Positions 680 through 37,191 are shown, counted from the first letter of the stretch. The stretch is 64,000 bases of DNA from an uncultured Verrucomicrobiae bacterium (GCA_963756875.1 CAVWPA010000003.1:288001-352000); one strand, 5' to 3'. Made by a program: numbers and translations. The notes: generated by a model from the sequence alone, not told the origin.

Positions 680-1681
680 TCAAATCTGTTCGGGCTTTTG
701 GTCGCGTCCGAGCAGCGCTTCCATCGCCTGCGTCGCAGTCCTGCCTTCATAAAGCATCGCGTACACCTGATCGATAATTGGTGTGTCGACTCTCAATTTG
801 CGCGCGCATTCGTACGCGCTTTTGGCAGTTGGAATCCCTTCGGCAACCATCTGCATCGCGGACGTGATTTGATCAAGCGATTGGCCCTGGCCGAGCTCAT
901 CGCCGACGCGGCGGTTGCGGCTCTGCTTGCTAAAACAGGTGAGAATCAGGTCGCCGGCTCCACTTAGGCCATAAAATGTTCGCAACTCTCCTCCCATTGG
1001 CTGGCCGAGCCGTATCATCTCGGCAAGGGATCGAGTGACCAGTGCCGCTTTGGAATTATCGCCCAGGCCCAGGCCATCACTTGCACCGGCCGCGATGGCG
1101 AACACATTCTTTAGCGCGCCCCCAAGCTCGATGCCGGTGAGTTCTTCGCTTGTGTAAACGCGAAATCGCGGGCTGCCAAGGTAGCCCTGCAGCTCGGCGG
1201 CGTATCTCGGATCCTTGCACCCGAGGACCGTCGCCGTTGGCAAACTTCGAGAGACTTCCCGGGCGAGGTTGGGGCCGGAAAGCACCGCAATCTCGTGGCC
1301 CAAAAAAATTTCGCCGAGGATTTCGCTCATCCTCAATCCGGTCCCATGCTCAATGCCCTTCGTGCAACTGAGAAGGACCGCCTGTTCATTAGTGATGACT
1401 TCTCGCAGTCGAGTGGCAATGGCCCGCAGCTCCGTCGAAGGAGTAACGAAAACAATGAGATCCGCTCCGGCGCAGTCTTTCAGATCGCTCGTTAGGCGAA
1501 CCGAGTCTGGAATTTCTACTCCGGGTAAATAAACTTTGTTCTCGCGCGTTCGCCGGAGCTGTTCCAGTCGCGCCATGTCGTGCCCCCAGAGAAAAATATC
1601 ACGCCCGTCTTTAGCCCAAAGAACCGCCAGCGCCGTTCCCCATCCGCCCGCTCCGAGAATCGCAGTCGTCTTCACTTTCAC
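680..1681 (-). CDS. gpsA: NAD(P)H-dependent glycerol-3-phosphate dehydrogenase
   Basis: GAGGWG Rossmann motif, TKGIE, SGPNLA, GGALKN, GDLILTC..SRNRR. Start placed at GTG 1681, overlapping the plsY stop (GTGA). Confidence 0.96.
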   Translation of the reverse strand: MKVKTTAILGAGGWGTALAVLWAKDGRDIFLWGHDMARLEQLRRTRENKVYLPGVEIPDSVRLTSDLKDCAGADLIVFVTPSTELRAIATRLREVITNEQAVLLSCTKGIEHGTGLRMSEILGEIFLGHEIAVLSGPNLAREVSRSLPTATVLGCKDPRYAAELQGYLGSPRFRVYTSEELTGIELGGALKNVFAIAAGASDGLGLGDNSKAALVTRSLAEMIRLGQPMGGELRTFYGLSGAGDLILTCFSKQSRNRRVGDELGQGQSLDQITSAMQMVAEGIPTAKSAYECARKLRVDTPIIDQVYAMLYEGRTATQAMEALLGRDQKPEQI

Positions 1682-2301
1682 TTCTGGCGGAACCGTGGCT
1701 CGGTCCCTTTTGCGAGACGAGATAAATTTGAGCGGTGACGGACAATTACAATCACCGCGAGGCACAGCGAGAAGTACAGAAGCACGGGCGTCTCAAGGTA
1801 GCCCAGAAGCAGCATGGCGGCGGTTACAATTGGAAATGCGATCACGGCTGCAATCGAAGCCAGCGCAACGTAGCGGGTAAATTGAAACGTCGCGATCCAG
1901 ACGATTGCCATTGCGAGCGCAGCCAACGGGAGCAATGCAAAGATGACGCCACCGGATGTAGCAACGCCTTTGCCTCCTTTAAACCCGAGCCACACCGGAA
2001 AACTATGTCCAATTACAGAACTGGTTCCCGCGATGATGCCACACAGTTCGCGACTGATTCCCGTCGGCTGCGCCCTGTCGAAAATCAACACCGAGATTCC
2101 CACCGCAGCGACGCCTTTCAAAAAGTCGAAAGCAAAAACCGGATATCCGAAGCCCTTGCCCAACGCTCGAGTGACATTGGTCGCTCCAACATTGCCGCTC
2201 CCTACCTGGCGGATGTCAACGCCACCGATCCGACCGGCGATATAAGCGGCGGGAATCGAGCCCAGAAGATAACCGGCAAAAACTAGAAGTGCGATTGTCA
2301 T
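1678..2301 (-). CDS. plsY: Glycerol-3-phosphate acyltransferase PlsY
   Basis: YLLGSIP, GSGNVGATN, DFLKG, GHSFP..FKGGKGVAT and RHRSN motifs. Confidence 0.97.
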   Translation of the reverse strand: MTIALLVFAGYLLGSIPAAYIAGRIGGVDIRQVGSGNVGATNVTRALGKGFGYPVFAFDFLKGVAAVGISVLIFDRAQPTGISRELCGIIAGTSSVIGHSFPVWLGFKGGKGVATSGGVIFALLPLAALAMAIVWIATFQFTRYVALASIAAVIAFPIVTAAMLLLGYLETPVLLYFSLCLAVIVIVRHRSNLSRLAKGTEPRFRQK

Positions 2302-2340
2302 TACGGCAGAACCTCCCGCGCGGCAAATCAGGGATGTCCT

Positions 2341-4212
2341 TTACGCTGATGTAAGTCGCAACTCATTGCTTTTCAACCAGATAGATATAATCGCTACGTC
2401 CGTTGGAGTCACTCCACTGATTCGAGCGGCCTGCCCAAGCGAACTGGGACGAACTGCCGTAAGCTTCTGGCGCGTTTCCGAGCGGAGGCCGGCAATCTTC
2501 CCAAAATCGAGCCCATCAGGAATTCGTTGCTCCTCCCGGCTGGCCAGTCGTCGATTTTGCTCGGCCTGCCGCGCGGCATATCCCTCGTACTTGAGATCGG
2601 TTTCCACCAAATCCCAGATTTCGCGCGGCGCCAGGGTTGTCAGCTTATGCGGAAGATTCTCGAAGCGAAAATCCGGACGCTTGAGAAGCTGGCAAAGTGC
2701 TTCCCCTTGAATTCTGGTTGCGCGGGCAACTTTCCGGGTCTCATCCAGGAGGCTCATCTTATCTTGGAGGTTTCGCCAGCGGGCGGGATCAACTAGCCCC
2801 GCTTCGAATGCGCGGCCGGTTAGCCGCTGATCGGCATTGTCCTGGCGAAGTTGCAGCCGGTCCTCGGCACGACTGGTGAACATTCGATATGGCTCTTCGG
2901 TTCCCTTGGTGACCAAATCGTCGATCAACACGCCGATGTAAGCCTCGCTCCTTTCCAAGATAAGCGGCGCCTCCCCCTTGACCTTCAAGGCGGCGTTCGC
3001 TCCGGCGATTAGGCCCTGGCCGGCTGCCTCTTCATATCCGGAGGTGCCGTTGACCTGGCCGGCGAAATAGAGGCGTTGCACCAGTTTTGTTTCCAGCGTG
3101 GGCAAGAGTTGGGTCGGAGGGAAAAAGTCATATTCAACGGCATAGCCGGGGCGCATCATTTCGGCCCGCTCCAAACCGGGAACCGTCCGGAGAAATTTGA
3201 GCTGAACGTCATAAGGCAGGCTTGTCGAGATTCCATTGACATAAAACTCCTCGGTATGGCGGCCTTCGGGCTCGAGGAAAAGCTGGTGCGCAGTTTTATC
3301 GGCAAATTTGACCACTTTGTCCTCGATCGATGGGCAATATCGAGGACCGGTCCCTTGGATTCGACCGGCGTAAAGGGGAGATCGATCGAGGTTGGATCTA
3401 ATGATTTCGTGCGTCTGAGGCGTGGTGTTCGTAATCCAGCAGGGTATTTGTTCCACGTGGAACGCGCCGTCGGTCCCATGGTTCAACGTAAAAAAATCAT
3501 TAGGCCGTGCCGCCTCTCCGGCGTAAAACGCAAACCTGGGCGGGGGCTCGTCTCCGAGCTGAATCTCGCACTTGGAGAAATCAATCGATCTGGCGTTTAA
3601 TCGACATGGCGTCCCTGTCTTAAATCGCCCGACGCTGAACCCGAGTCGCCGGAGATTTTCGCTCAATCCCGAGCTGGTATCGGCCATTCGCCCGCCAGGC
3701 TTGCTATTTTCGCCAACATGCAAAAGGCCGCGCAAAAATGTGCCTGCCGTAATGATCACGCTTTGGGCGTCAATTACCAGGCCCAGATCTGTCTCCACTC
3801 CGGTTACCCGGCCATTTTTCACGATTATGCCGCTAACCGTCGCTTGTTTGAGATCCAAATTGGCCGCGCGCTCGACGATCGCTTTCATTCGAAACTGGTA
3901 CGCCTTTTTGTCGCATTGAACCCGGGGCGCCCGGACAGATGGCCCTTTCGATTTGTTTAGCATGCGAAACTGAATTCCTGTGGCATCGGTGTTCAAACCC
4001 ATCGCGCCGCCCATCGCATCGATCTCGCGAACAATATGCCCCTTGGCCAGCCCGCCGATCGCCGGATTGCACGACATCTGGCCAATCGTATCCAGGTTTT
4101 GCGTAAGCATTAACGTGCGGCACCCGAGGCGCGCCGCAGCCAATGCCGCTTCGATTCCAGCGTGACCGCTTCCAACGACCAAAACGTCGTACTCCGTTGG
4201 CAGTCTAAACAT
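2341..4212 (-). CDS. mnmG: tRNA uridine-5-carboxymethylaminomethyl(34) synthesis enzyme MnmG (GidA)
   Basis: [43 protein letters not shown] and [11 protein letters not shown] motifs. Start at ATG 4212 overlaps the end of cdd. Confidence 0.98.
3449..3464. promoter_or_regulatory. parS centromere-like site inside mnmG
   Basis: TGTTCCACGTGGAACG; perfect 14-bp palindrome GTTCCACGTGGAAC matching the known parS consensus TGTTNCACGTGNAACA. Confidence 0.8.
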
Positions 4213-4600
4213 GGCCAAGAATTCCCTTTTTCGGGCGTGGCAGCAAATCGGCAAGTGTGGACGTTTCTTCCCGGCCTCCGACTGTCGACGAAATGACCTT
4301 CATCGCGGGATTAAACTCCGCGAGCACTTGCCGGCACGCGCCGCAGGGGGCGGCTGGCTCTTTCGACTCGGTAACGATAGCCACCGCAACAAACTCCCGT
4401 TGTCCATGAGCCACCGCCGCAGCTACCGCCGCGCGCTCTGCGCAGATGGTTAGACCTAACGAGACATTCTCGACATTGCATCCGGAAAAAATCTCACCCG
4501 ACTTCGTCAACAAGGCTGCGCCCACGGCGAACTTGGAGTATGGGGCGTATGCGTTTCTTCGCGCTTGGATCGCCGCATCCACTAATTTTTTATCAGTCAT
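4205..4600 (-). CDS. cdd: Cytidine deaminase
   Basis: [22 protein letters not shown] and PCGACRQ zinc motifs. Confidence 0.96.
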
Positions 4601-4625
4601 AAATACCTAATTTAAAACCATTTAT

Positions 4626-5392
4626 CTATTTCGTAGTCTCCTCGAGGCTAGAACGACGAGCAATGTCCATCTCGTCTCCTGTTCCCGGAGGAACCCCGGC
4701 TTTTTTTATCGCCCGCAAGGCTATCCGGCTAAGCAGAAAAAACAGGAGCGCCGTTGTCACAAATGCGCCGCCCCATCGCCAATATTCAATCACCCTGGGA
4801 TGGCTCGTCCCCATGGCAACATGAACACCGTGACTGACCGAGAGATACCCAGATATGTATACAAAAACAAACCGGGCGCTCGTCCGATCGTTGTCCAAAG
4901 CATGTACACGCCGAATCGAATTTGCGTCAAGCCATATAGATAGTTCAGCAGACTTGTCGGAAAGAGCGGGTGCAACTGGCTCAGGAAGATGATCTTCCAG
5001 CCCTCCCGTTCGACTGCCGGCTCCAGGTTCTTTAGAACGGCATTGCCGGATAGCTTTCGCGTCAGCCATTGCTGCCCGATCGATCGACTGATGGCAAAGG
5101 AAATTGCCGCCGAGATCGTGTTTCCCACGAGAACAAGAATGAAGCCCCACCAAAGTCCGAAGAAAAAGCCGCTCCCGATGCTCAAGACGCCGCCGGGAAG
5201 AAGCAGGATGTTACAGAGCGCGAAAAGAAGAGGATAACAAATGGCGCTCCAGGTCCCCCAATGCATCACCCGCTGCTGTAGCGCCGCCAGGAAATCGACG
5301 ACCTGCAAAAAACGTGAGATGACAACAAACAACGCGATCACGCCCAGCAGCCCGGCCAGTTGCCATAGGAGCACTTTGCCCGTTTTCGACAT
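4626..5392 (-). CDS. TVP38/TMEM64 (DedA/VTT) membrane protein, frameshifted near 4833-4846
   Basis: LLLPGG..GFFFG, HPLFPTSLLNY..GLT motifs. Removing two extra bases restores YLGTLGQHGVHVAM and joins the C-terminal TM helix of ORF 4626..5153. Confidence 0.8.
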
Positions 5393-5410
5393 TTCGAAAT
5401 TCTGCTTGTT

Positions 5411-7228
5411 TCACAGGCTTCGCGCAAATCCCGCCAGCTCCGTGGTCATCTCATAATGCAGAAACGGAGTGATCAAGTATACCCCTGGGAAATGCTCCAG
5501 TGCGACGGTGATCATTCTCTTGGCCAGCATCATTCCGTAATCCCGCGCGCGCGACTCATCCAGCTTCGCCATTTCGGAGCGCACCGAATCGGAAACGATG
5601 ATCCCCGGCACTTCGTGATGCAGAAATTCCGCCTGTCGCGCGCTGAGCAACGGCCAGACTCCCGTGAAAATCGGAATCTGCAGATGTGCAGTCCGCCGTT
5701 TCATTTCTTTCACAAGAGCGGCGTCGAAAACCGGCTGAGTCATGGCAAATTGGGCGCCGGCCGCGACTTTGCGATCCAGCCGCTGCACCTGCGGGTCGAG
5801 GCTTTTCGCGTTCGGATTGAACGTGCACCCGATCACAAAATTCGTGGCCGCCTTGAGCGGTTTCCCCGCGTAGGTGAAACCCGCGTTGAGTTGCTTGATG
5901 ATCGAGATCAATTCGATCGAATTGACGTCGTAAACCGAAGCCGCGCCCGGATGATCGCCCACTCTTGCGGGATCTCCGGTAAGCGGCAGCACGTGACGCA
6001 TCCCAAGCGCAGCCATTCCGAGCAACTCGCTTTGCAATCCAATCACGTTGCGGTCGCGACAGCTCAAATGCAGCAGCGGCGTGATCCCGAAGCGTTCCTT
6101 TAAAATCGCACCGACCGCCAGATTGCTGACCCGCAAAATTGCCAGGGAATTGTCTGCCAGCGTAATCGCATCGCAGCCTGCGCGAACGAGAGCCTGCGCC
6201 CCGGCGAGGTACTTCTCCAGCGCCAGTGTTTTGGGCGGATCCAGCTCGCAAATAATCGCGCGTTTTCCGCTCCGGATCTTGTCGACCAGACTTTCCTCCG
6301 GTTTGTGCTCTGTTTTTACCGGGACTCTCGACGGTTCGGCGATCGTGTGGACCAATTTCGATTTTACGGGACGCAGATCGGCAATCGCCTTCGCGACGGC
6401 CGCGATGTGCGCCGGCGTTGTTCCGCAGCAACCACCGATCAAACGCGCCCCCTGGGCAGCCATCTCGCGCGCGGCATTGGCAAAATAATCCGGATCGGTC
6501 GGATAAACGTAGCGCCCTTCCGTGTAACGCGGGTAGCCGGCGTTTGGATACGCTGCCAGTAAACCGCCGGCGGGAATTTTCTCGAGCAGTTGCAGCATCG
6601 CGTGCGGGCCATTCAGGCAATTTGCCCCGACGATCGAAGCTCCCAGCTCGCGGCTGCGTTTGAATGCATCCAATAGCGATATGCCCGACTGGAGGCGTCC
6701 GTCCGGCTCGCACGCGAAAAGCGATACGATGAGACAGTCACTCTTTGGCACCGCGCGCAGCGCGATTTCCATCTCTCCGAAATTCATGAATGTCTCGAAA
6801 AAAATCAGATCGACGTTTCCATCGAGTAGCGCCGTGATCTGTTCGCGAAAGATTTCGCCGCGATCGATTCCGCGCTCCTCCGCCTCAATCCGGCTGATCC
6901 CGAGCGGGCCGACGCTACCGGCCACGCAAACGTGCTTGCCTTTCGCGGCCTGACGCGCGACCCGGGCCGCTGCCTTGTTGATCTCAGCAACGCGATTCTC
7001 AAATCCAAATCGCGCCAGGCGAATCGCGTTGGCGCCAAAGGTGTCCGTCTCGATCACTCGGGAGCCGGCCGCGATGTATTCATCGTGAATTGCGCGAACA
7101 CGATCGGAGTCGCTGACGCAGAGCTCTTCCAGGCATCGATCGACCGGCACGCCACGATCGAGCAGCAACGTGCCCATCGCGCCATCGCCGCAGACGATTC
7201 GCGACTCAAGTTCGTCGAGCAGATCCAT
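5411..7228 (-). CDS. yitJ: Bifunctional homocysteine S-methyltransferase / 5,10-methylenetetrahydrofolate reductase
   Basis: DGAMGT, GANC, GGCCGT (HMT domain) followed by ELDPPK, HLSCRDRN, TGDP, TQPVF (MTHFR domain). Confidence 0.93.
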   Translation of the reverse strand: MDLLDELESRIVCGDGAMGTLLLDRGVPVDRCLEELCVSDSDRVRAIHDEYIAAGSRVIETDTFGANAIRLARFGFENRVAEINKAAARVARQAAKGKHVCVAGSVGPLGISRIEAEERGIDRGEIFREQITALLDGNVDLIFFETFMNFGEMEIALRAVPKSDCLIVSLFACEPDGRLQSGISLLDAFKRSRELGASIVGANCLNGPHAMLQLLEKIPAGGLLAAYPNAGYPRYTEGRYVYPTDPDYFANAAREMAAQGARLIGGCCGTTPAHIAAVAKAIADLRPVKSKLVHTIAEPSRVPVKTEHKPEESLVDKIRSGKRAIICELDPPKTLALEKYLAGAQALVRAGCDAITLADNSLAILRVSNLAVGAILKERFGITPLLHLSCRDRNVIGLQSELLGMAALGMRHVLPLTGDPARVGDHPGAASVYDVNSIELISIIKQLNAGFTYAGKPLKAATNFVIGCTFNPNAKSLDPQVQRLDRKVAAGAQFAMTQPVFDAALVKEMKRRTAHLQIPIFTGVWPLLSARQAEFLHHEVPGIIVSDSVRSEMAKLDESRARDYGMMLAKRMITVALEHFPGVYLITPFLHYEMTTELAGFARSL

Positions 7229-7663
7229 CGGAACTGTTTACTCTGCCTTGGCTCGATACTAAAACGTTTATTCGCGGCTCTCGTTAAATGTTAAATGGAA
7301 TAGATCGCGCGCCCAGACTGGCCGCAAGCAAGCCCGCCAAGGCGCTAGCACAGGCGCAAAAACAGAAACTGTCGCCAGATTTCGGCGGTACATGGTCCCG
7401 TGTTAAACGAAGAGCCAGCAATTAGCCAACAAGTTCCAATAACTCCCAACAACCTTCGTCGTTTCGCAAATGTTCTAAGTTGTCTCTGTTTATTCGCACT
7501 GTTATCAACATCATCCCACCCCTGCCGTAATGCCTCTTGGCTCGACCCGGTTATTCGCATCATTAAGAAGAAGAATAGATTAAGTAATTTATTAAATCAG
7601 CAGAGTACTAACCAATAACCCTTTCGCCGCACGCGGTTCTGACGCACCTTCGCAGTTTGACTG
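7229..7663. other. Candidate chromosomal replication origin (oriC)
   Basis: AT-rich divergent gap. TTATTCGCR at 7268, 7490 and 7551; TTATCAACA at 7502; phased CCARYAA at 7415/7426/7436/7446; CAT CAT TAA GAA GAA GAA TAG run and AT tract at 7558-7600; parS, mnmG and mnmE nearby. Confidence 0.55.
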
Positions 7664-8449
7664 ATGCATCGCGTGCTTAATCCTGAGTCGGCCGATTCGT
7701 GCGCGCGAGGGCGCTGTGCGCTCGCCGTGATGACAAAAGCGCCCCGGGCCGGCAAGGTGAAGACGCGCCTGGTCCCGCCGCTAACGCACGAGGAAGCGGC
7801 GCAGTTGAACATCTGTTTTCTACGTGATACAGCTGCGGCAATTGCGCGGGTGTGTAATGGCGCTCAGGGGACACCGATTCTCGTAAGTGGTGTGGCGGTT
7901 TACACGCCGGTCGGCGCCGAAGCGGCCTACGCCGATATCTTGCCGCCCGATTTCGAGCTTGTTTCACAGCGTGGCGACGCCTTTGGCGATCGGCTTGCGT
8001 TTGCGGTCGAAGATCTTTTTAAAATCGGCTTTGCCTCAGTCTGTTTGATCGATTCGGACAGTCCAACTGTGACGGCGGCGATGTACGCCGAGGCGGTCCG
8101 TGAGCTGGCCAACGCGGGAGATCGCATCGTGCTCGGGCCGTCGGATGACGGGGGATATTATTTGATTGGCTTGAAACAGTTCCGCCGCGAAATGTTTGAA
8201 GGGATCGACTGGAGTACGGAGCGCGTGCTCAAACAGACAAAACAACGGGCGCTCGAGCTCGGTCTGGAGGTTAAATTATTGCCTGGCGGGTACGATGTGG
8301 ACGATCGCGTGACATTGCGTCGCTTATGCGAGGACGTTCTTAACAACAAATCCGAATTAGCAATCGATCGCGCTCCCAATACGACAGCATTTCTACGCGA
8401 GCTTGTCGCGCGCGGCGAAGGCGATAGGATTTGGCATGGTGACACATGA
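7664..8449 (+). CDS. DUF2064 / TIGR04282-like glycosyltransferase-fold protein
   Basis: KAPRAGKVKTRL, QRGDAFGDRL, IDSDSP, LGPSDDGGYYLIG, IDWST and DVDD motifs. Confidence 0.88.
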   Translation: MHRVLNPESADSCARGRCALAVMTKAPRAGKVKTRLVPPLTHEEAAQLNICFLRDTAAAIARVCNGAQGTPILVSGVAVYTPVGAEAAYADILPPDFELVSQRGDAFGDRLAFAVEDLFKIGFASVCLIDSDSPTVTAAMYAEAVRELANAGDRIVLGPSDDGGYYLIGLKQFRREMFEGIDWSTERVLKQTKQRALELGLEVKLLPGGYDVDDRVTLRRLCEDVLNNKSELAIDRAPNTTAFLRELVARGEGDRIWHGDT

Positions 8450-8503
8450 AGCTGGATCCCTCGCAGTAGTAGCCGCGTTAGCACTCCCTGGCCCTGGAGT
8501 TGA

Positions 8504-9625
8504 ATGAAACGAGCGCTCGTAACCGGGGGCGCCGGCCTGATTGGCTCGCACATAGCCGATCTGCTGCTCAGTGAAGGGTGGAAAGTTAGAATACTCGATA
8601 ATCTCGAACCTCAAACGCATCGGCGTGGAAAGCCGCCGTGGATTTCCGACAAGGCCGAGTTCATCCAGGGCGACATACGCGACCGCGATGCCATCGCGAT
8701 GGCGCTCGACCGGATCGACGTCGTCTTTCACCAGGCCGCTTACGGCGGCTACATGCCCGAGATCGCCAAATTCGTTCAAGTCAACTCGTTAGGCACCGCG
8801 CAAATGCTGGAAGTCATTCGGGAAAAGAATCTGCCGATTAAGAAGATCATCGTCGCCAGCTCGCAGGCGGTTTATAGCGAAGGTGCGGGTATCTGCCCCA
8901 AACACGGAATGCTTTTTCCACCAGTGCGTCCGCTCAAACAATTGCAACGAGGGGATTGGCAGGTCCATTGCCCAATCTGCGGCGCAGCGACCGAAAGCGC
9001 ACCCACGCCGGAGAATGCGCCTGTTGGCGGCGAAACAGTTTACGGTCTGACGAAGGTCGATCAGGAAAAGCTCGTGCTGCTCTGGGGAAAACAAGCAGGT
9101 ATCCCTACTGTCGCGCTTCGTTACTCCTGCACATACGGACCGCGCCAGTCGATCTTCAACCCCTATACGGGTGTGATCGCGATCTTTTGCACACGTTTGC
9201 TCAACGATTTGCCGGCTGTGCTTTACGAAGATGGCGAGCAAACGCGCGATTTTTCGTTTGTTGAAGACATCGCACGAGCGAACCTGCTCGCAGCCGGGAC
9301 GGAAAAGCTCGACGGGTTGCCGGTGAATATCGGCTCGGGCAAAGGCACGACGATTCGGGAGATCGCGGACCTGCTTTCCGACGCGCTCGAGATTAGGATT
9401 ACACCTGAAATAAACGGCGAGTTTCGCCCCGGCGAGATGCGTCATCTGACGAGCGACACGGCGAGAGCCCGGGCGGCTGGTTACCAACCGCAGGTCGGTC
9501 TTACGGAAGGAATCGGGCGCTACATCGATTGGATCCGAAAGCAATCCGACATCCGCGATTATTTCAGTGAAGCGGCCGATCTTTTGAGAAGCAAAGGGAT
9601 TGTGCATCGGGCGAAAAGCGCATGA
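8504..9625 (+). CDS. NAD-dependent epimerase/dehydratase
   Basis: TGGAGLIG, catalytic YGLTK, YGPRQ and RDF motifs; inserted CPKH...CPIC segment. Confidence 0.92.
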   Translation: MKRALVTGGAGLIGSHIADLLLSEGWKVRILDNLEPQTHRRGKPPWISDKAEFIQGDIRDRDAIAMALDRIDVVFHQAAYGGYMPEIAKFVQVNSLGTAQMLEVIREKNLPIKKIIVASSQAVYSEGAGICPKHGMLFPPVRPLKQLQRGDWQVHCPICGAATESAPTPENAPVGGETVYGLTKVDQEKLVLLWGKQAGIPTVALRYSCTYGPRQSIFNPYTGVIAIFCTRLLNDLPAVLYEDGEQTRDFSFVEDIARANLLAAGTEKLDGLPVNIGSGKGTTIREIADLLSDALEIRITPEINGEFRPGEMRHLTSDTARARAAGYQPQVGLTEGIGRYIDWIRKQSDIRDYFSEAADLLRSKGIVHRAKSA

Positions 9626-10623
9626 TTTCGACCGCGGCTCCGGATTTCAATGAGTCGATCGCAGCGTACGCCCGGAAGGATTTCCCGCTGTTACGTGTGA
9701 CGCGCACGGTTGGCGAAGCTCTGGAGACGATCCGCCGCGAAGGCGTTGGCGAGCGGGTGATTTACTTTTACGCGGTGGACGAGGCCGGCCGGTTGGCGGG
9801 CGTACTGCCAACGCGGCGTTTGCTGACTGCCGCTCCGGAGACACGACTGGAAGACATACTGGTGCGTCGCGTGGTTGCGATTCCGGCGAGCGCCAGCGTG
9901 CTCGACGCCTGCGAATTCTTCGTGCTCTACAAGTTTCTTGCCTTTCCAGTCGTGGACGCAGAGCGGCGCGTGTTAGGCGTCGTGGATGTGAGCTTGTTTG
10001 CGGAGGAGGTTTTGGAAGCGGGGGAGCGCGAAGCCGCAGCGCCCGGGCGCGAGGACATTTTCGAAGCGCTTGGTTTTAGGCTGGCACAGGTGAGGGACGC
10101 GTCGCCGTGGCGTGTGTTTCGCTATCGGTTCCCGTGGCTCCTGGCGACCGTAGCGACTGGGACGGCGTGCGCGTTTCTGGCTGGCGCATTTGAGACCACG
10201 CTCGCCAGAAGTCTTATCATCGCATTTTTTCTTACAATGGTGCTTGGCTTGAATGAAAGCGTGAGCATGCAATCGATGACCCTGACCATCCATGCATTGC
10301 GCGCGATGCCGCTGCGGAGGAACTGGTTTTTGGGCGCGCTACGGCGCGAACTGATGACAGCGTTGCTGCTCGGCGTCGCCTGCGGTCTGCTCGTGGCTGC
10401 GATCGTCTGGTTCTGGCGCGGCGAACCGCTGAGTGCCGTGGTCGTCGGTGGCGCGGTCTTCCTCTCGTTGATCACGGCCGCGATCTTTGGCCTGAGCATC
10501 CCGTCTCTTCTTCATTGGCTGAAACTCGATCCAAAAATCGCCGCCGGCCCGGTCACCCTGGCACTGACAGATTTTTGCGCCCTGCTTTTTTATTTCACCA
10601 TCGCGTGGCTGATCCTGAGATGA
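9622..10623 (+). CDS. mgtE: Magnesium transporter MgtE-like (CBS pair plus TM domain)
   Basis: CBS pair (YFYAVD, FPVVD), RFPWL and DPKIAAGPVTLALTD motifs; lacks the N-terminal helical domain. Confidence 0.85.
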   Translation: MISTAAPDFNESIAAYARKDFPLLRVTRTVGEALETIRREGVGERVIYFYAVDEAGRLAGVLPTRRLLTAAPETRLEDILVRRVVAIPASASVLDACEFFVLYKFLAFPVVDAERRVLGVVDVSLFAEEVLEAGEREAAAPGREDIFEALGFRLAQVRDASPWRVFRYRFPWLLATVATGTACAFLAGAFETTLARSLIIAFFLTMVLGLNESVSMQSMTLTIHALRAMPLRRNWFLGALRRELMTALLLGVACGLLVAAIVWFWRGEPLSAVVVGGAVFLSLITAAIFGLSIPSLLHWLKLDPKIAAGPVTLALTDFCALLFYFTIAWLILR

Positions 10624-11324
10624 ACACCGCCCAGACTACCGGCGTGTCTGTGATTATTCCGGCGCTGAACGAAGAGGAATCGATCGCGACCGTGGTGCGC
10701 GAATGTCTGGCGACCGGCTTGCCTAACGAGGTCGTCGTTGTCGATAACGGCAGTACCGATGCAACCGCGGCACGCGCGCAGGCCGCCGGAGCAAAAGTGA
10801 TGAGTGAGCCAAATCGCGGTTACGGCCATGCATGTCTTGCGGGAATTAGTGCGATTTCACCTGAATGTAAGATTGTCGTGTTCCTCGATGGCGACGGGAG
10901 CGATTGCCCTGAGTTCATGAATCAACTGATCGGGCCCATCGTATCCGGCACGCACGATTTCGTGATCGGCTCGCGCACGCGCGGGCAACGCGAACCCGGC
11001 AGCATGAATTTTCAGCAAATCTTTTCCGGACGAATGGCCGGCGCGATCTTGCGGCTGCTTTACGGGGTTCGTTACTCCGACATGGGTCCATTCCGCGCGA
11101 TCCGCCGCCCTACCCTTGAGCAGCTCGAAATGCGCGAACCGACGTATGGCTGGAACATTGAGATGCAGATGAAAGCCGCGCGCGCGGGGCTGCGCATTCT
11201 CGAGGTACCGGTGAACCATCGTTGTCGATCCGGCGGTCAATCCAAGGTCTCGGGCACGTTGCGCGGCACTTTTGTCGCCGGGACGCGCATCATCACGACG
11301 GCATTCAGAATCGCGCTCGAATAA
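10620..11324 (+). CDS. Glycosyltransferase family 2
   Basis: IIPALNEE, VDNGSTD, RGYGHA, FLDGDGS and GSR motifs; ATGA overlap with the mgtE stop. Confidence 0.92.
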   Translation: MNTAQTTGVSVIIPALNEEESIATVVRECLATGLPNEVVVVDNGSTDATAARAQAAGAKVMSEPNRGYGHACLAGISAISPECKIVVFLDGDGSDCPEFMNQLIGPIVSGTHDFVIGSRTRGQREPGSMNFQQIFSGRMAGAILRLLYGVRYSDMGPFRAIRRPTLEQLEMREPTYGWNIEMQMKAARAGLRILEVPVNHRCRSGGQSKVSGTLRGTFVAGTRIITTAFRIALE

Positions 11325-11368
11325 TCAGCGCGCTTGGCATAAGCAGTTCTACAGCGCATGTTTGCGGC

Positions 11369-12925
11369 TTGAGCATTAGCGGAACGAAAGCGATTTTGGC
11401 TGGTTTGTTCGCCGGCCTTGTCGCTGCGATCGCGATGACCCTTGTGATGCTGCTCCTTGCATGCTTTGGCGTCGCGACACCGCTCACGCTTATTGGAGAC
11501 CGGCTCACCGCGTTTATTTCGCCAGGGCCCTTCCTGTCGCTGATGGGGCGCGTCGGCGGCTACAATCATCTGAAACAACTCGGAGTGGGATCGACCATTG
11601 CCGGACAGCTTATTGTCGGCGCAAGCGGCGGCGGAATTTTCGGCTTATTGATGCGCCGCAACCCCGGGCGTCACGTCACGGGCCTTACCATATCGATTTT
11701 CGTTTTGTTGCCGATTGCTGCCTTTATTCTTGGACTTTGGCCGGTCCTGGGAACCAGTTACCGCGGCCTTCCAATTGGTCCGGCGCGATTGGTCACGCTG
11801 ATTGGATTTGCATTGAGCGTGTTCGCGTTCGAGCGAATGCTGGCCGGGGGATTTCGATATCTGATTCGGCCGCGCGTCGAAACGGACGATCGAGAATTCA
11901 CGCCGGCAATCGGCCGGCGCGCGGTAATTTTGGGCGGACTCGGCTTGCTCGCGGCCGGAGGCGCAGCCGGATTACTCCGTAAACTTTATCGCGCCGCCGC
12001 CTTCAGTTATGACGGCACACAATACAAGGGGCGCATCGTCCAGGCAATCACGCCTAACGAGTTGTTTTATTGCGTGACCAAGAATGTGATCGATCCGCGC
12101 GTGAACGTGCATCTTTGGCGTCTCGAAGTGAACGGGCTTGTGCAAAGCCCAATCACTTACGGCTTCGACGATCTGCAGGGATTTTCCATGGTCGAGCAGG
12201 AAACGACGCTGATGTGTATCAGCAACGGGCTCGACGCCGGCCTCATGAGCAATGCAGTTTGGAAAGGCATCACCATGCGCGACCTGATCGACCCGGCGTC
12301 ACCGCTCTCCGACGCTGCGCGGGTGCGAATGGTCGCCGTTGATAATTACAGCGATACGATACCGCTGGAGAAAGCGCTCGACCCGGCGACGCTGATTGCC
12401 TTCAAGATGAACGGTGTGCCCCTGCCGGATCGGCATGGTTATCCGGCGCGCGTCGTCGTTCCCGGTTACTTCGGCGAGAAACATGTGAAATGGCTGACCC
12501 GGATTGAGCTGGCGCCCGCCGATGCGAAAGGCTTCTACGAAACACAGGGCTGGGGCCCGGACTTCATTGTGCCGACCCGTTCCCGTATCGACGTGCCGGA
12601 TCACGATGCGCGGTTCTCGCTGCGTCAGGTAAAAGCGCCGATTGAAGTGAAAGGCGTCGCCTTTGGGGGCGACCGCGGCATTTCGCGCGTCGAGTTAAGC
12701 GTTAATGACGGCGACAGCTGGAACGACGCAAATATTTATTACAACGGCGGCGATCAGGCGTGGTCCCTTTGGAAATATAACTGGCAGCCTGAGGATGAGG
12801 ACGATTACACGCTTGTTGTGCGCGCGACGGACGGTGAAGGCGAGGTGCAGGAATGGGAGGAAGATCGCGGCCCTTTTTCGGGCGTGACCGGTTTCCATAA
12901 GATCGTCGTGTACGTCACGGCCTAA
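11369..12925 (+). CDS. Membrane-bound molybdopterin-dependent oxidoreductase (sulfite oxidase family)
   Basis: N-terminal TM helices, internal GRRAVILGG, Mo-ligand TLMCISN, HGYPAR..PGYFGEKHVKW. Start uncertain (TTG 11369 chosen; ORF opens at 11222). Confidence 0.88.
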   Translation: MSISGTKAILAGLFAGLVAAIAMTLVMLLLACFGVATPLTLIGDRLTAFISPGPFLSLMGRVGGYNHLKQLGVGSTIAGQLIVGASGGGIFGLLMRRNPGRHVTGLTISIFVLLPIAAFILGLWPVLGTSYRGLPIGPARLVTLIGFALSVFAFERMLAGGFRYLIRPRVETDDREFTPAIGRRAVILGGLGLLAAGGAAGLLRKLYRAAAFSYDGTQYKGRIVQAITPNELFYCVTKNVIDPRVNVHLWRLEVNGLVQSPITYGFDDLQGFSMVEQETTLMCISNGLDAGLMSNAVWKGITMRDLIDPASPLSDAARVRMVAVDNYSDTIPLEKALDPATLIAFKMNGVPLPDRHGYPARVVVPGYFGEKHVKWLTRIELAPADAKGFYETQGWGPDFIVPTRSRIDVPDHDARFSLRQVKAPIEVKGVAFGGDRGISRVELSVNDGDSWNDANIYYNGGDQAWSLWKYNWQPEDEDDYTLVVRATDGEGEVQEWEEDRGPFSGVTGFHKIVVYVTA

Positions 12926-12985
12926 GATCGAGGCGCCGATTGCCGCCAGTTGGAAACTTGCCCAGTTCCAGTTAGTCTCTTGCTC

Positions 12986-14096
12986 ATGACGTCGCTGTGG
13001 GACCAGGCAAATCCGCAGTTGCGCGATCTTGCGGTTTACGAACCGGGGAAGCCGATCGAAGAAACGGCGCGAGAGCTCGGAGTCGATCCGGCCGAAGATC
13101 ATCAAACTGGCTTCCAATGAGAACCCGTTGGGGCCGTCACCGAAAGCGGCCGCGGCAATGCGCGACGCAATTGCCTCCGCGCATCTTTACCCGGATGGCG
13201 GCGGGTTTTATTTGCGCGAGGCCCTGGCGGCCAGGCTCAATCTCGCCAGGGAAAATCTTATCCTGGGGAACGGCTCGAACGAGGTGATCGAATTTGTCGG
13301 GCACGCGTTTCTCAAACCCGGCGACGAGATCGTTGCATCGCAATACGCTTTCATCGTTTACAAGCTCGTTGCGAAACTTTTCGACGCGCGTGTTATCGAA
13401 ACGCCAAGTCCGGATTATCGGCACGATCTTGAGGCGATGTTCGCTGCGATCACCCCGAAAACGAAAGTCGTTTTTATCGCCAACCCCAATAATCCCACCG
13501 GGACATTGATTCCGCAGGCCGAGATCGACCGCTTCGTCACGCGCGTTCCGGAGCGCGTCATTGTCGTTTTCGACGAAGCGTATTTCGAATTTCTCGATCA
13601 CCCGCCGGACACGCTTCAGTACGTTCGCGAAGGCCGGAACGTTATGGTCGTGCGCACCTTTTCAAAAATTCACGGCCTGGCCGGTTTGCGAGTCGGTTAC
13701 GGAATGGCACGGGCCGAGCTGATCGAGGTACTCCAGAAAACGAGAGAACCGTTCAACGTAAACAGCATCGCACAAATCGGCGCGCTCGCGGCGCTTGACG
13801 ACGAAGACCACCAACGAAAAACGAAAAGTGTTGTCGATGCCGGTCGCGCTTATCTGGAGGAACAATTCAACAGGATGAAGGTTCGTTTCGTCCCGACGAC
13901 GGCGAACTTCATCATGGTCAACGTCGGTGATGGACCGGCGGTTTTTAAAAACATGCTCGCCCGGAAAATCATCGTGCGCCCCCTCAAAGGTTACAAATTG
14001 CAGGAGTGGGTCCGGATCACGATTGGTACAATGGAGGAAAATCGAAGGTGCGTCACGGTGCTGGAGGAAATCCTTCCGAAACATCGCGAACATTGA
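12986..14096 (+). CDS. hisC: Histidinol-phosphate aminotransferase, +1 frameshift near 13096
   Basis: ATG 12986 gives MTSLWDQANPQLRDLAVYEPGKPIEE; one extra A precedes IIKLASNENP, NPNNPTG, DEAY and RTFSKIHGLAGLRVGY. Confidence 0.92.
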
Positions 14097-15457
14097 GCTT
14101 GCCGGATCGACAACTGGTTTCTGGCGACACGATCGCCGCCATTTCCACCCCGCCGGGCGAAGGCGCCATCGCGCTCGTCCGAATTTCCGGCGCAAACGCA
14201 ATCGACGTCGCGGACAAAATTTTTCGAGGCAAAGAAAAGCCGTCGCAATTTGAGTCTCATGTCCAGCATCTTGGCGAGATTGTCGATGAAGGCGGACAGG
14301 CGGTTGATCGGGCGATGGTCTCGGTTCATCGCGCGCCGGCCAGTTATACGGGCGAGCAATTGGTCGAGGTCGGTTGCCATGGCGGTACACTGGTCAGCGC
14401 AAAAGTCATGGAGATATGCCTGCGCGCCGGAGCACGCAGTGCGCGGCCGGGTGAATTCACGGAACGCGCGTTTTTGAACGGAAAGATGGACCTCACCCAG
14501 GCCGAAGCAGTGATCGATTTGATTCGTGCCAAAACGGATCTCGCGTTGCGTTCGGCCACGGAACAACTCGAAGGGGTGCTTGGAGCGAAAATTGAGGAAA
14601 TTCGCGACGCAATCGTTGATCTTGTCGCACAGGTCGAAGCATCAATCGATTTTCCGGAGGAAGGCATTGAGCCCGAGCAGGGTAAACAATTATCCGGGCG
14701 GCTTGGTTCGATTCGCGACGAGATCGACGGCCTGCTGGCCACGGCCGACCAGGGCCGGATCCTGCGCGAGGGTGTGCGCGTGGTGATTTACGGCGCCACC
14801 AACGCCGGCAAATCGAGTTTGCTAAACCGGCTGCTCGGCTATGAACGGGTCATTGTGAGCGAAACGCACGGGACCACCCGCGACACGATCGAAGAGACGC
14901 TGAATCTCCGTGGCATACCGATCCGGTTGCTCGACACCGCCGGCTTGCGCAGGTCCAAAAGCAAACTGGAGCGCGCGGGAATCGCCCGCACTGAGAAATC
15001 GATAGAGCTTTCGGACTTGCGCCTGCACATCGCCGATCGTAGCGCCCCGAGGCCGCCGCGCTTCGGGAGCCGGAGTGAAAACGGCAGTGAAATCATGCTG
15101 CTGAACAAGTGCGACCTGCCCGAACACAGCGATTGGAAAGGTCTCGACGCACTTCGCATTTCGTGCCAAACCGGCGAAGGAATAGCGGAGCTCGAAAAGG
15201 AAATTCTCGCGCATATCACAAAACAGAACCTGCGGCCGGAGAGCGCGGTTGCGATCAACGTGCGCCATCGCGACTGCCTGCGACGGGCGCTGGAGGCTTG
15301 CGACCGCGCGCGTACCGCCATGCGCGATGGGCTCGCCCCTGAGTACGTCGCGGTCGACCTGAAAGACGCGCTGCGCGCAGTAGGCGAGGTGATCGGCGCC
15401 GTGAACGTCGAACAAATTCTCGATTCCGTTTTTGGCCAGTTTTGCATCGGCAAATGA
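14093..15457 (+). CDS. mnmE: tRNA modification GTPase MnmE (TrmE)
   Basis: DTIAAIST, GEFTERAFLNGK, GATNAGKSS, GTTRD, DTAG and C-terminal FCIGK; TTGA overlap with hisC. Confidence 0.97.
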   Translation: MSLPDRQLVSGDTIAAISTPPGEGAIALVRISGANAIDVADKIFRGKEKPSQFESHVQHLGEIVDEGGQAVDRAMVSVHRAPASYTGEQLVEVGCHGGTLVSAKVMEICLRAGARSARPGEFTERAFLNGKMDLTQAEAVIDLIRAKTDLALRSATEQLEGVLGAKIEEIRDAIVDLVAQVEASIDFPEEGIEPEQGKQLSGRLGSIRDEIDGLLATADQGRILREGVRVVIYGATNAGKSSLLNRLLGYERVIVSETHGTTRDTIEETLNLRGIPIRLLDTAGLRRSKSKLERAGIARTEKSIELSDLRLHIADRSAPRPPRFGSRSENGSEIMLLNKCDLPEHSDWKGLDALRISCQTGEGIAELEKEILAHITKQNLRPESAVAINVRHRDCLRRALEACDRARTAMRDGLAPEYVAVDLKDALRAVGEVIGAVNVEQILDSVFGQFCIGK

Positions 15458-16461
15458 ACAATGGATACGAGCGTTTCGTCAGGCCGCTCCTCTTTTCATT
15501 TGATCCGGAGACGGCCCATCATTTGGCCATCGCATGCTTGCGCGGCGCGTCAGGTGTTGATCTTGCCCTGCGCGCGCTAAAAGTTTTTCAGCCCCCCGCG
15601 AAGCCGAAAGCGCTCTTCGGTCTCCAATTCCCGAACCCAATCGGCCTGGCGGCGGGTTTTGACAAGAACGGCGTCGCTTTGCCGGCGTGGGCCGCGCTTG
15701 GTTTCGGTTTCATCGAGGTCGGCACCGTCACTGCAAGACCGCAACCTGGGAACCCGAAGCCGCGCATTTTTCGGCTGCCGGAGCAGGCGAGTTTGATCAA
15801 TCGGCTTGGATTCAACAATGACGGAGCGGACGTGGTCGCGCAGAGACTACACGAATTGCGCGAGAGCGGGCGCTGGCCGTCCGTTCCAGTCGGCATAAAC
15901 ATTGGGAAGTCGAAGGTGACGCCGCTGGAAACAGCTGCCGAGGATTACGTTTATTCGTTTCGACGGCTTCATCCGCTGGCCGACTATATTGCACTGAACA
16001 TCAGCTCGCCGAACACGCCCGGATTGCGCGCGCTCCAGGCCCGCGAGCCGCTGTCGATTTTGCTCGGGGCCCTGCGCGAAGAGAACCGCGCGGCAAAGAA
16101 ACCACTGATCGTGAAGATCGCCCCCGATCTTTTGCCTAACGAGCTGGAGGAAATTCTGGCGATCTGCGAGCAGAACGAAATCGCGGGAATTATTGCGACG
16201 AACACAACGCTCGATCACTCCTCGGTCCCACCGGCGCGCAATCAGGAAGGCGGTTTGAGCGGCCGGCTGCTTCGAGACAAAGCGACTGCGCTGGTGCGCC
16301 AGATCACGGCGCGGTCCCGTATTCCAGTAATTGCGTCGGGCGGGATTTGCGACGCAGCATCCGCGCGAGAAAAGATCGAAGCGGGGGCGCAGCTTCTTCA
16401 AATCTACACCGGCTACGTTTACCGCGGCCCAGGATTGCTGCGTGAAATACTGGCGGAATAG
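15454..16461 (+). CDS. pyrD: Quinone-dependent dihydroorotate dehydrogenase
   Basis: GLAAGFDK, QPGNPKPR, NRLGFNN, NISSPNTPGLR, KIAPD, TNTT and GGLSG motifs. Confidence 0.97.
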   Translation: MNNGYERFVRPLLFSFDPETAHHLAIACLRGASGVDLALRALKVFQPPAKPKALFGLQFPNPIGLAAGFDKNGVALPAWAALGFGFIEVGTVTARPQPGNPKPRIFRLPEQASLINRLGFNNDGADVVAQRLHELRESGRWPSVPVGINIGKSKVTPLETAAEDYVYSFRRLHPLADYIALNISSPNTPGLRALQAREPLSILLGALREENRAAKKPLIVKIAPDLLPNELEEILAICEQNEIAGIIATNTTLDHSSVPPARNQEGGLSGRLLRDKATALVRQITARSRIPVIASGGICDAASAREKIEAGAQLLQIYTGYVYRGPGLLREILAE

Positions 16462-32663: not shown

Positions 32664-33350
32664 TCAGGGCGGCCGAGTTCCGAAGCGGTAGCCGATGCCT
32701 GATTCAGTCTTGATTAACGACGGGTTTCCCGGGTCCGGTTCGATCTTTTGTCTCAAGTGCGTAACGTAAACGCGCAGGTATTGGCGATGTTCCTCGGATT
32801 TCGGCCCCCAAATCTCGCGCAAAATGTGTCGATGCGTCAAAACGCGGCCGGGATACCGCACAAATAATCGAAGTAAGGCGTACTCGGTCGCCGTCAGTTT
32901 GACTTCGTGGCCGCCGCGCGTGACCACGCGCGCCGTAAGATCGACAATGAGATCGCCGCTTTTGAAAACCGAAATCTCCTCTTCGGGTCGAGTTTTCCGT
33001 TGCGCGGCACGCAGGCGAGCGAGCAATTCCGGTGTGCTAAACGGTTTGGTAACATAATCGTCCGCGCCGGCGTCAAGCGCGGCGACTTTTTCCTGCTCGT
33101 CATCGCGCACCGTCAGCACAATCACGGGCGCTTCGCTCCATTCCCGCAATCGTTTAAGCACAGCCAGCCCTTCCATATCGGGCAGTCCAAGATCGAGAAG
33201 AATAACGTCTGGCCGGCGAGTCGCGGTTTCACTCAACCCTTGTTGACCGGTTGCGGCTTCATACACCTGATAGTTCTCGCCCTCGAGGACGACTCGGAGA
33301 AGGCGACGAATTTGGACTTCGTCGTCGACGATCAGAGCAACTGGTTTCAT
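32664..33350 (-). CDS. kdpE: Response regulator KdpE
   Basis: Receiver domain (LDLGLPD, DYVTKPF) plus OmpR-type winged helix (YLRVYV); follows kdpD. Confidence 0.93.
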   Translation of the reverse strand: MKPVALIVDDEVQIRRLLRVVLEGENYQVYEAATGQQGLSETATRRPDVILLDLGLPDMEGLAVLKRLREWSEAPVIVLTVRDDEQEKVAALDAGADDYVTKPFSTPELLARLRAAQRKTRPEEEISVFKSGDLIVDLTARVVTRGGHEVKLTATEYALLRLFVRYPGRVLTHRHILREIWGPKSEEHRQYLRVYVTHLRQKIEPDPGNPSLIKTESGIGYRFGTRPP

Positions 33351-35974: not shown

Positions 35975-36010
35975 TCGTGAAGTCTACTCTCTTCCCTGGC
36001 CCGGCGCACC

Positions 36011-36880
36011 TTAGAAGCGATGGCCAAAGCCGATGAAGACGTTGCAGTCGGGCGCGCTGTCGGTCAGGCCGATGTAAGAGTTGATGTCGATCGAGGAGTT
36101 GGCCCCGATTTGGTAGGTAAGCCCAAAGTCCGCGGTGCCGATCCAGGGATGATCGTGGCCGGTGCTCACGGCGTTGTAGAATTCTGCGTAGCCGCTCAAA
36201 TTCCCGACGATCGTGCGCGAAAGGCCGATCGGATTTTGCCATTGCACGCGCATGTCGCTGCTTCCCGGCTCGTCGAGGATGTCGACTCTGGTTTGGCCGA
36301 ACAAGGTGAATCCCCAGGGCAACGAGTAGTTCACCGGCAGACCAAAGCCCGGTTCCCAAACGTGGTTGGCGAAATGATCGGTGTTGGTTGGAATCTTCAG
36401 CGATGAAACTAGACCGATGACTAATTTCCCGCCGTCGTTACCAAGAAAATTGACTTTCAGACGCACCGTTGTGTCGCCAAACCCATCTTGCTCGACCGGT
36501 TTTCCGAAACCGTTGCCGCTCGTGCGCGTGTTGACGTAGAACTGCGGAAACACCTGCAAATCCATCCAGTTGGTGAGCCCGAGCTTGAAATTCGTATTGC
36601 CAATGATCCAGGTGCGGACGCGGACGCGATCGGCTACGTCAGTCGTCCAGTTGGCCACGTCGCTCTCGATTTGGAACACGCCGGCGTCGATTGTATAGGG
36701 ACTGTCGGTATGGCTCGATCGGTCGGTATTGTAGGGACGACGCAGGTCAATCGGCGTGGGATTAAACAAAGTGTATTGCGACTTATCCGGCGGCGGAGTG
36801 GCTTCGGGCGACGACTCGCCATCGGCAAACATGAGACGCGCGCTGGCAAGAATCGCTGCGGAAATCATTGCTCTTTTCAT
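36011..36880 (-). CDS. Putative outer-membrane beta-barrel protein (MetA-pathway/phenol-degradation-like transporter family)
   Basis: Signal peptide, TDR..TDSPYTIDAG, GFGDT motifs, C-terminal GHRF. Confidence 0.75.
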   Translation of the reverse strand: MKRAMISAAILASARLMFADGESSPEATPPPDKSQYTLFNPTPIDLRRPYNTDRSSHTDSPYTIDAGVFQIESDVANWTTDVADRVRVRTWIIGNTNFKLGLTNWMDLQVFPQFYVNTRTSGNGFGKPVEQDGFGDTTVRLKVNFLGNDGGKLVIGLVSSLKIPTNTDHFANHVWEPGFGLPVNYSLPWGFTLFGQTRVDILDEPGSSDMRVQWQNPIGLSRTIVGNLSGYAEFYNAVSTGHDHPWIGTADFGLTYQIGANSSIDINSYIGLTDSAPDCNVFIGFGHRF

Positions 36881-37191
36881 CGTTGTTTGGGTTTCCAGAG
36901 GGGATTGGGAAGAAACCATGTCCACATCAACTCAAAGTTGATCCCGGAGCCATCGCCGCCGCCATCATCCTCCGGCGCTTGTTCGGTTCCATCGGGTTCG
37001 GGGTGGCGAGCGGTCAGCGCCGTGGACATGCCGGCTCCTGGGCAGGGTGGTAAATCGATGGGCGCATCGATCATCCGCCTCGCGGCGATGCTTCCTGGCA
37101 CGACACCAGGCTGACACGGATCAAAGGAGGCCGAGAACCAGCTGGTCGTGGCTGCGACAAGCCCTTTTGAAGTTGGAGGGCGGAGGCTCAT
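36877..37191 (-). CDS. Hypothetical protein between kdpC and the barrel gene
   Basis: Starts 6 bp after the kdpC stop and overlaps the next ATG (ATGA); no family recognised. Confidence 0.35.
   Translation of the reverse strand: MSLRPPTSKGLVAATTSWFSASFDPCQPGVVPGSIAARRMIDAPIDLPPCPGAGMSTALTARHPEPDGTEQAPEDDGGGDGSGINFELMWTWFLPNPLWKPKQR

Follow-up and report, generated by a model that had tools for sequence, protein, structure and literature searches.

The origin of chromosome replication (oriC) in Escherichia coli lies in the arrangement gidA-oriC-mioC, with its DNA unwinding element (DUE) next to box R1. The gene mnmG (gidA) is often found near origins, and parS sites cluster there as well. In the E. 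coli origin, DnaA captures the T-rich upper strand, used as a 5' overhang on the side of the left DnaA-box cluster (Left-DOR) (PMC10325909). For the basal unwinding system (BUS) of Bacillus subtilis incC, the trio strand is given as 3'-AATAGGTGT-gap-(NAN)n-5', i.e. 5'-(NAN)n-gap-TGTGGATAA-3', and the trios are placed on the 5' tail in the scaffolds of the same paper (PMC8287927). Among Verrucomicrobia, DoriC-based predictions for Akkermansia muciniphila and Methylacidiphilum infernorum give TTATTAACA, written 3'-AATAATTGT-5', as the trio-proximal box (Table S1, PMC8287927); Chthoniobacter and Xiphinematobacter have no entry among the matches listed from that table. Our literature search found no described replication origin for Chthoniobacterales. 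Here, we report on a candidate origin in a stretch of 64,000 nucleotides (in the following, the window) from an uncultured Verrucomicrobiae bacterium, which is Chthoniobacterales-like (Verrucomicrobiota). The candidate is a module at positions 7490-7618, in the intergenic gap between the diverging genes yitJ and DUF2064.

A first-pass annotation of the window had proposed that this gap, described as a 435-bp AT-rich region where the gene orientation flips, is an origin with a lineage-specific DnaA box and without dnaA in the window. The coordinates, strands and composition of the gap were confirmed: the coding-size open reading frames (ORFs) of the minus strand lie at 680-7228 and those of the plus strand at 7664-16461, and the GC content of the gap is 47.6%, compared with 54-60% across 2-kb stretches of the window. 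Read in plus orientation, the module consists of box d, box c, approximately 40 unconserved nt, box b, a purine 13-mer, an AT-rich and A-skewed stretch and the inverted box a (Table 1). It is very probably a conserved DNA element of the protein-binding type, in which DnaA-box-like sites are arranged around an AT-rich core. We further regard it as probable, and as the best single explanation of the data, that a Chthoniobacterales-type verrucomicrobium has the core of its chromosomal oriC in this element. The candidate origin is not linked to dnaA.

The three same-strand copies of TTATTCGC on which the annotation was built (plus strand, 7268, 7490 and 7551) and the TTATCAACA starting at 7502, 3 bp past the second copy, are present as placed; in total, the window contains five copies of TTATTCGC on both strands, compared with 2.67 expected. 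The copies at 7490 and 7551 are parts of the module, whereas the copy at 7268 belongs to a duplicate that is specific to the window. The best conserved site, box c, reads TTATCAACA in most orthologues, with the variants TTATTAACA (the orthologous box in loci L002 and L024), TTATTCACA, TTGTTCACA and TTATCGACA. At the position of box d, relatives read TTGTTGACA, TTATTTCCA or TTGTTGGTG, and the box itself is retained only by the eight closest sequences. Box b has an invariant TTRTT half (23/23 aligned sequences) and a variable 3' half. For box a, the near clade has TTGTTCGCA, and loci further out have TTGTTCACA or TTATTCACA. A perfect TTATCCACA stands at orthologous places in two relatives, as box a in L027 and as box c in L029.

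Boxes d and c form a tandem, TTATTCGCA-CTG-TTATCAACA (7490-7510), of the same orientation and facing the AT-rich region, an arrangement which is retained in the eight closest sequences. Tandem boxes of this kind, at most 3 bp apart, are a criterion for a BUS, though in the window 40 nt separate the pair from box b and from the AT tract, to which it is not adjacent. With regard to the box family, matches to TTRTYNRCA were counted in 16 loci, where 25 fall into the 4.7 kb around the purine run and 58 into the other 265.5 kb. This corresponds to 5.28 per kb in the approximately 296 bp around the run of each locus and 0.218 per kb elsewhere, a 24-fold difference, and the offsets and orientations of the matches near the run are fixed. 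In the window, 3 of the 17 matches lie at 7490-7559, within 70 bp and on one strand. Since the orthologues vary around TTATCCACA, the density is raised 24-fold and the DoriC-based predictions for Verrucomicrobia use TTATTAACA, the boxes of the module are taken to be DnaA-box-type sites of a family which can roughly be written as TTRTYNRCA. G at box position 3 occurs also in actinobacterial DnaA boxes. Judged by the orthologues, TTATTCGCA represents a variant within this family and not the consensus of the lineage; among the full boxes, TTATCAACA is kept best. Thus, the annotation was probably right in calling an origin, but the box characteristic of the lineage is the TTATCAACA/TTRTYNRCA family and not TTATTCGCA.

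The evidence for the module comes mainly from relatives. These were collected by searching the YitJ protein against species-representative genomes, which gave 80 loci at 57-84% protein identity (designated by L numbers), all from Verrucomicrobiota/Chthoniobacterales-type assemblies; the mnmG side of the neighbourhood is retained in 27 and the DUF2064/mgtE side in 24 of them. The module is found at the same place in 24/24 loci that keep the DUF2064/mgtE side and in none of the other 56. A first regular expression, written before the alignment was made (TTRTT, N3-9, at least four purine-A-N triplets and an AT-rich flank), had one match in the window (7551-7576), one in each of 16 relatives at the same place and none elsewhere in the 80 loci. 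A second one was fitted to the alignment and run on both strands of 81 sources comprising 1.2 Mb. It recovered exactly one site in the window and in each of the 24 loci and none elsewhere, and this includes L018 and L035, which carry the module though they were not used in building the expression. In the alignment of 23 sequences (A1), the stretch between box b and box a measures 50-52 nt (51±1) in 23/23 sequences, has an AT content of 59-76% and contains more A than T on the plus strand in all of them. Invariant positions are TT.TT in box b, AAG..AAG in the purine run and AA.AA in box a. The elements, their fixed geometry and their conservation are thus seen directly, and the module keeps its identity while the neighbouring DUF2064 protein is 55-66% identical. 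On the contigs of relatives, it is located near 797.8 kb of the 907-kb CAWDGJ010000002.1, near 58.8 kb of the 846-kb PMTM01000006.1 and near 19.2 kb of the 526-kb CAWJUP010000001.1.

What is conserved, as far as can be told from these loci, is the degenerate box family together with the geometry and not an exact word. Upstream of yitJ, the exact TTATTCGC was found in 0/74 relatives in the orientation of the window and in 5/74 in the opposite one. Conservation of the motifs in the corresponding gap of relatives, which the annotation had named as a check, was accordingly absent for the exact word and present for the degenerate module at all 24 syntenic loci. A blastn search of the gap against the loci recovered only a promoter-like element at 7401-7460, and the box module becomes visible only in anchored views. 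In dinucleotide shuffles with the composition of the gap, some 8-mer occurred at least three times on one strand in 78/5000 and a NAN run of at least seven triplets in 232/5000 cases. Taken alone, the pattern of the window is only modestly beyond chance, and its weight therefore rests on the conservation in relatives.

The genes next to the module differ among the loci: methyltransferase and cyclase in L004, mgtE and yitJ in L021, and DUF2064 and yitJ in the window, L017, L020 and L022. At yitJ loci with other upstream neighbours, the module is missing and yitJ has a promoter-like site of its own. Since it is lacking there and stays in place with varied flanking genes, the module does not appear to be a control element of yitJ. 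A riboswitch or leader of yitJ was also considered and ruled out by this absence, by the lack of a consensus structure (RNAalifold predicts 0 pairs on A1) and by Rfam, where no match reached the gathering score and the only one up to E=10 in 7150-7750 was Ocean-V, whose 15.8 bits fall short of the threshold of 75.

The stretch between boxes b and a is a candidate unwinding element. The segment 7559-7618 has a calculated stability of -66.0 kcal/mol, compared with a window mean of -91.4 (sd 5.1), and is the tied least stable 60-mer of the window. The 60-mer with which it ties belongs to another AT-rich tract (4580-4640); this tract makes up the gap that lies upstream of cdd, contains no box matches and was for these reasons rejected as a second half of the origin. 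Taken together, the sequence criteria for oriC used by Ori-Finder/DoriC find their counterparts here in a DnaA-box cluster, an AT-rich element next to a box (at the sequence level) and a non-coding module kept among relatives.

The local strand composition is suggestive of origin polarity. A model with a coding-strand term and an orientation-corrected replication term, restricted to the 64 kb, placed the best polarity switch for all positions at 6.5-8 kb, with the plus strand G-rich rightward. Minus-strand genes have a coding-strand GC skew of 0.067 to the left of the gap (n=6) compared with -0.006 to the right (n=33; Mann-Whitney p=0.0017), a contrast which is also seen at third codon positions (p=0.02). 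On the right side, the GC skew of plus-strand genes exceeds that of minus-strand genes (p=0.03). In addition, a parS-like palindrome lies inside mnmG. It differs from TGTTNCACGTGAAACA, the 16-bp palindromic parS consensus, at two positions in the window and at one or two positions in the 25 of 27 mnmG-bearing loci that retain it despite 60-80% protein identity. Part of this conservation is possibly protein-driven, since the site lies in coding sequence. Some loci have a second parS-like copy near the start of mnmG.

A sequence of events that would account for this layout can be outlined as follows. DnaA, the presumed binder, would occupy the tandem boxes d and c and box b, all of which are directed at the AT tract, and also the inverted box a on the far side of it. 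The AT-rich segment of 50 nt between boxes b and a would then melt, and DnaA or a partner protein would retain one of the strands via the purine 13-mer and the A-rich run. Forks would depart in both directions, which would match the diverging gene blocks, and no second origin would be used. The 13-mer is the core of a run of seven NAN triplets (CAT CAT TAA GAA GAA GAA TAG, 7558-7578) that precedes the AT tract, as the annotation had described. According to the alignment columns, the run is conserved beyond the NAN periodicity, as a specific and near-invariant 13-mer with fixed G and A positions.

Table 1 Features of the candidate origin module, of the surrounding gap and of its gene neighbourhood.
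Feature	Position	Strand	Remarks
Box d, TTATTCGCA	7490..7498	+	In tandem with box c and 3 nt upstream of it
Box c, TTATCAACA	7502..7510	+	Best-conserved DnaA-box-like site
Box b, TTATTCGCA	7551..7559	+	Adjoins purine run
Purine 13-mer, TTAAGAAGAAGAA	7563..7575	+	Family consensus wGAAGrwkAAGAA; fixed distance (4 nt) from box b
AT-rich stretch between boxes b and a, A-over-T-skewed	7560..7609	.	50 nt, 76% AT; candidate unwinding element
Box a, TTATTGGTT on minus strand, inverted	7610..7618	-	Degenerate in this genome
Intergenic gap separating the divergent yitJ and DUF2064 blocks	7229..7663	.	47.6% GC
Imperfect duplicate of 7536-7559 (CTTGGCTCGA ... GTTATTCGC)	7247..7276	+	~35 bp, bears first TTATTCGC copy (7268)
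41-codon ORF opened by conserved ATG	7270..7393	-	ATG opens putative cyclase gene (PF04199) in relatives
Promoter/leader-like element on yitJ strand	7401..7460	-	Found by blastn; aligned in 22 loci
parS-like palindrome TGTTCCACGTGGAACG (GTTCCACGTGGAAC) inside mnmG	3449..3464	.	~4 kb from gap
mnmG (gidA)	2341..4254	-	~3 kb from gap
yitJ-type homocysteine S-methyltransferase/methylenetetrahydrofolate reductase fusion (left flank)	5411..7228	-	
DUF2064 protein gene (right flank)	7664..8449	+	
mnmE (trmE)	14006..15457	+	~6 kb from gap

Several observations weigh against an origin at this place, and the strand of the purine run is among them. The run lies on the non-canonical strand, the same one on which the adjacent box b reads 5'-TTATTCGCA-3' (TTAT...), and for this reason the repeats on the canonical strand are NTN. 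The annotation had read the NAN run as DnaA-trios and had itself cautioned that, unlike in B. subtilis, they share the strand of the TTAT boxes. This caution was justified according to the published convention and our scan. As implemented here, the BUS rule called for a box with at most two mismatches to TTATCCACA, a spacer of 0-16 nt and at least three NAN on the 5'-tail strand, i.e. 5'-(NAN)n-gap-TGTGGATAA-3'. It had 0 matches in 7229-7663 and matched 12/23 aligned sequences inconsistently, at different boxes, compared with 1/158 control stretches. Two strand readings remain. The pyrimidine-rich complement may be the 5'-overhang strand beside boxes b, c and d; otherwise, for the inverted box a, the trio strand in the canonical sense may be the A-rich plus strand, and a filament path of approximately 50 nt would have the 13-mer at its distal end.

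Further points on the same side concern the boxes, the skew and the genes. Box a of the window has five mismatches to TTATCCACA, the TTATTCGC copy at 7268 is not conserved in relatives, and the gap is a place of recurrent gene gain and loss among them. A switch of the third-position GC skew (GC3) at 15-15.5 kb fits marginally better than one at the gap (residual sum of squares 533.21 vs 533.62), and the left side of the skew contrast comprises six genes only. The sole plus-strand gene on the left, purN, has a GC3 skew of +0.122, contrary to the model, and left and right do not differ in third-position T-over-A skew (p=0.59). Replication from the gap would put 33/49 of the right-hand genes head-on. 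As the annotation had stated for dnaA, no DnaA, DnaN or ParA/ParB family was found by the Pfam scan among 57 ORFs of the window (five ORFs of at most 117 aa each were left out), and no parB was seen there alongside the parS-like site. The approximately 3 kb past purN contain no dnaA or dnaN in the relatives L001 and L019, and parAB is present neither in the window nor in the flanks of these two loci.

These points have to be weighed together with other explanations of the module. A transcriptional role is possible since the module abuts conserved promoter-like elements: it could be the regulatory region of divergent promoters for the DUF2064/mgtE operon and the cyclase-yitJ unit, with the AT tract as promoter DNA and with the boxes bound by DnaA as a transcription factor or by another protein reading GTTRTT. 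The position between diverging operons and next to TTGGCT-N17-TTAACA-N8-ATG with three phased TTRTTGG would fit this explanation, as would the restriction of invariance to the TTRTT half of box b, the failure of the canonical BUS rule, the absence of dnaA from the window and the head-on orientation of most right-hand genes. Yet a consensus scan for sigma-70-type promoters gave 0 sites in 7100-7800, and, by eye, the columns of A1 show no aligned and conserved -10-like hexamer on either strand. Moreover, the module survives with different first genes on both sides, and yitJ loci in which the neighbourhood was lost do not carry it; yitJ is provided there with a separate promoter-like site. Regulation of promoters accounts for neither the skew polarity nor the parS-like site. 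We therefore consider a purely regulatory module unlikely, though deserving of some weight. A reading of TTGGCTCGA... as a sigma-54 or extracytoplasmic function (ECF) promoter was ruled out by spacing.

A module with several DnaA-box-like sites of fixed spacing and orientation, near the parS-like site and mnmG and without dnaA nearby, could also be an origin-proximal locus for DnaA titration or recycling, comparable to E. coli datA/DARS or to the clusters of DnaA boxes in B. subtilis, with oriC elsewhere, e.g. by dnaA. Such loci are not known to need a strongly AT-rich and strand-skewed core of 51 nt between inverted boxes, and the local skew switch at the gap argues against this possibility as well, which we judge to be improbable. 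Finally, the pattern of the window might have arisen by chance and gene decay, with the repeats as leftovers or as a small insertion after loss of the methyltransferase and the cyclase. The modest figures from the shuffles, the differing gene content of the gap among relatives and the local duplication that produced the copy at 7268 are in line with this. On the other hand, tblastn with the proteins of relatives found no remnant of either gene in the gap (best E 0.05-0.1, searched against the gap alone), so that pseudogene debris of the methyltransferase or cyclase was discarded, and the fixed geometry in 24/24 syntenic loci with a DUF2064 protein of 55-66% identity contradicts such an origin of 7490-7618. 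It holds for the duplicate at 7247-7276 only, and for the module as a whole we regard it as highly improbable. On balance, the oriC core is the reading that we prefer.

Besides the module, the gap contains elements of the yitJ strand. In relatives, yitJ is preceded by TTGACC-N17-TAATCG ending approximately 8 nt ahead of the ATG (e.g. L001 7955-8000, 40 nt upstream), which looks like a near-leaderless promoter; at 7229-7290 of the window, the duplicate of the box b region stands in its place. The element at 7401-7460 consists of three TTRTTGG at 10-bp phase followed by TTGGCT-N17-TTAACA, approximately 8 nt and a conserved ATG, and in the L001-L032 group it lies about 60-130 nt upstream of the start of the cyclase gene or yitJ. 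This layout suggests a near-leaderless transcript. The TTRTT core of the origin-type boxes recurs in the phased TTRTTGG repeats, which may represent weak sites for the same protein or weak members of the same box family.

Many relatives have additional genes in the gap, namely an S-adenosylmethionine (SAM)-dependent methyltransferase gene beside DUF2064 and a putative cyclase gene (PF04199) before yitJ, neither of which is present in the gap of the window. The cyclase gene was lost several times, leaving the 41-codon ORF in the window, a mini-ORF of about 12 codons near 5390-5440 of L017, which fuses its first and last codons, and a CTCTGG-repeat remnant near 7870-7950 of L001. The methyltransferase gene (~255 aa) is the head of the DUF2064 operon in L001, L004, L012 and others, and it is missing between the module and DUF2064 in the window, L017, L020 and L022. 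In L012, L014, L028, L044 and L056, several genes (yitJ, mnmG, the epimerase gene, mgtE) are covered by two to three tblastn pieces, which suggests frameshifts, possibly assembly errors of long-read bins.

With respect to the wider gene setting, the left minus-strand block includes gpsA, plsY, mnmG, cdd and a gene for a VTT-domain protein, and the right plus-strand block extends as far as pyrD, at 16461. Further to the right, at 33347-41648, a kdpD/kdpE two-component pair adjoins kdpC, kdpA and kdpB-like genes, where the KdpA match spans only profile positions 4-452 of 548. A P-type ATPase on the minus strand (53523-56103) appears to be split into two ORFs, 55438-56103 with the N-terminal parts and 53523-55376 with the remainder, possibly due to a frameshift or because it is a pseudogene.

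Chthoniobacterales are Verrucomicrobiota that abound in soil, and nearly all knowledge of them stems from metagenome-assembled genomes. If the reading as oriC is correct, the module would be an origin-marking signature with which such genomes could be oriented and growth rates derived from coverage (peak-to-trough ratio) could be anchored, and it would become possible to date the dnaA-unlinked state within the phylum. As a tentative and rather doubtful generalization from the loci at hand, Chthoniobacterales might possess a dnaA-unlinked origin with a non-canonical core, in which two inward-facing boxes 51±1 nt apart clamp an A-skewed AT tract and the 13-mer lies opposite the trio strand. This would imply either a DnaA filament that starts at the far box and follows the A-rich strand or a lineage-specific accessory protein that reads the 13-mer. 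The 51-nt core with its 13-mer on the "wrong" strand is a natural test for the generality of the DnaA-trio rule.

Compared with oriC of E. coli, the locus of the window is alike in having a box cluster whose nearest box is directed at an adjacent AT-rich element, in the T/pyrimidine-rich nature of the strand that would be the 5' overhang beside boxes b, c and d, and in the location of mnmG within a few kb with dnaA not adjacent. It is unlike E. coli oriC in that, by eye, neither 13-mer repeats nor TT[A/G]T(T) motifs are seen next to box b, in its box family TTRTYNRCA with many G/T variants, and in the inverted box that closes the AT tract at the fixed distance. To our knowledge, the near-invariant purine 13-mer has no counterpart in E. 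coli. In comparison with the BUS of B. subtilis incC and its predicted homologues, as depicted in PMC8287927 and PMC6669920, boxes d and c at 3 nt resemble the box 6/7 pair, a box adjoins A-containing repeats with triplet periodicity, after which comes an AT-rich region, and the boxes are oriented canonically with regard to the AT tract. The differences are that the NAN run is located on the 5'-TTAT...-3' strand of the box, leaving NTN on the canonical strand and no rule match in the gap, and that the run is kept as a specific 13-mer and not just in the middle A of each triplet. The box TTATTAACA predicted for Akkermansia and Methylacidiphilum differs by one base from TTATCAACA of the window and is the same as the orthologous box in L002 and L024; the predictions, as listed in Table S1 of PMC8287927, are unlike the window in that they come from distant orders and have the canonical strand layout, with only 3-6 trios. 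As an origin, the locus would belong to a known kind, and no published origin was found for its lineage; its architecture departs from the canonical box-trio rule.

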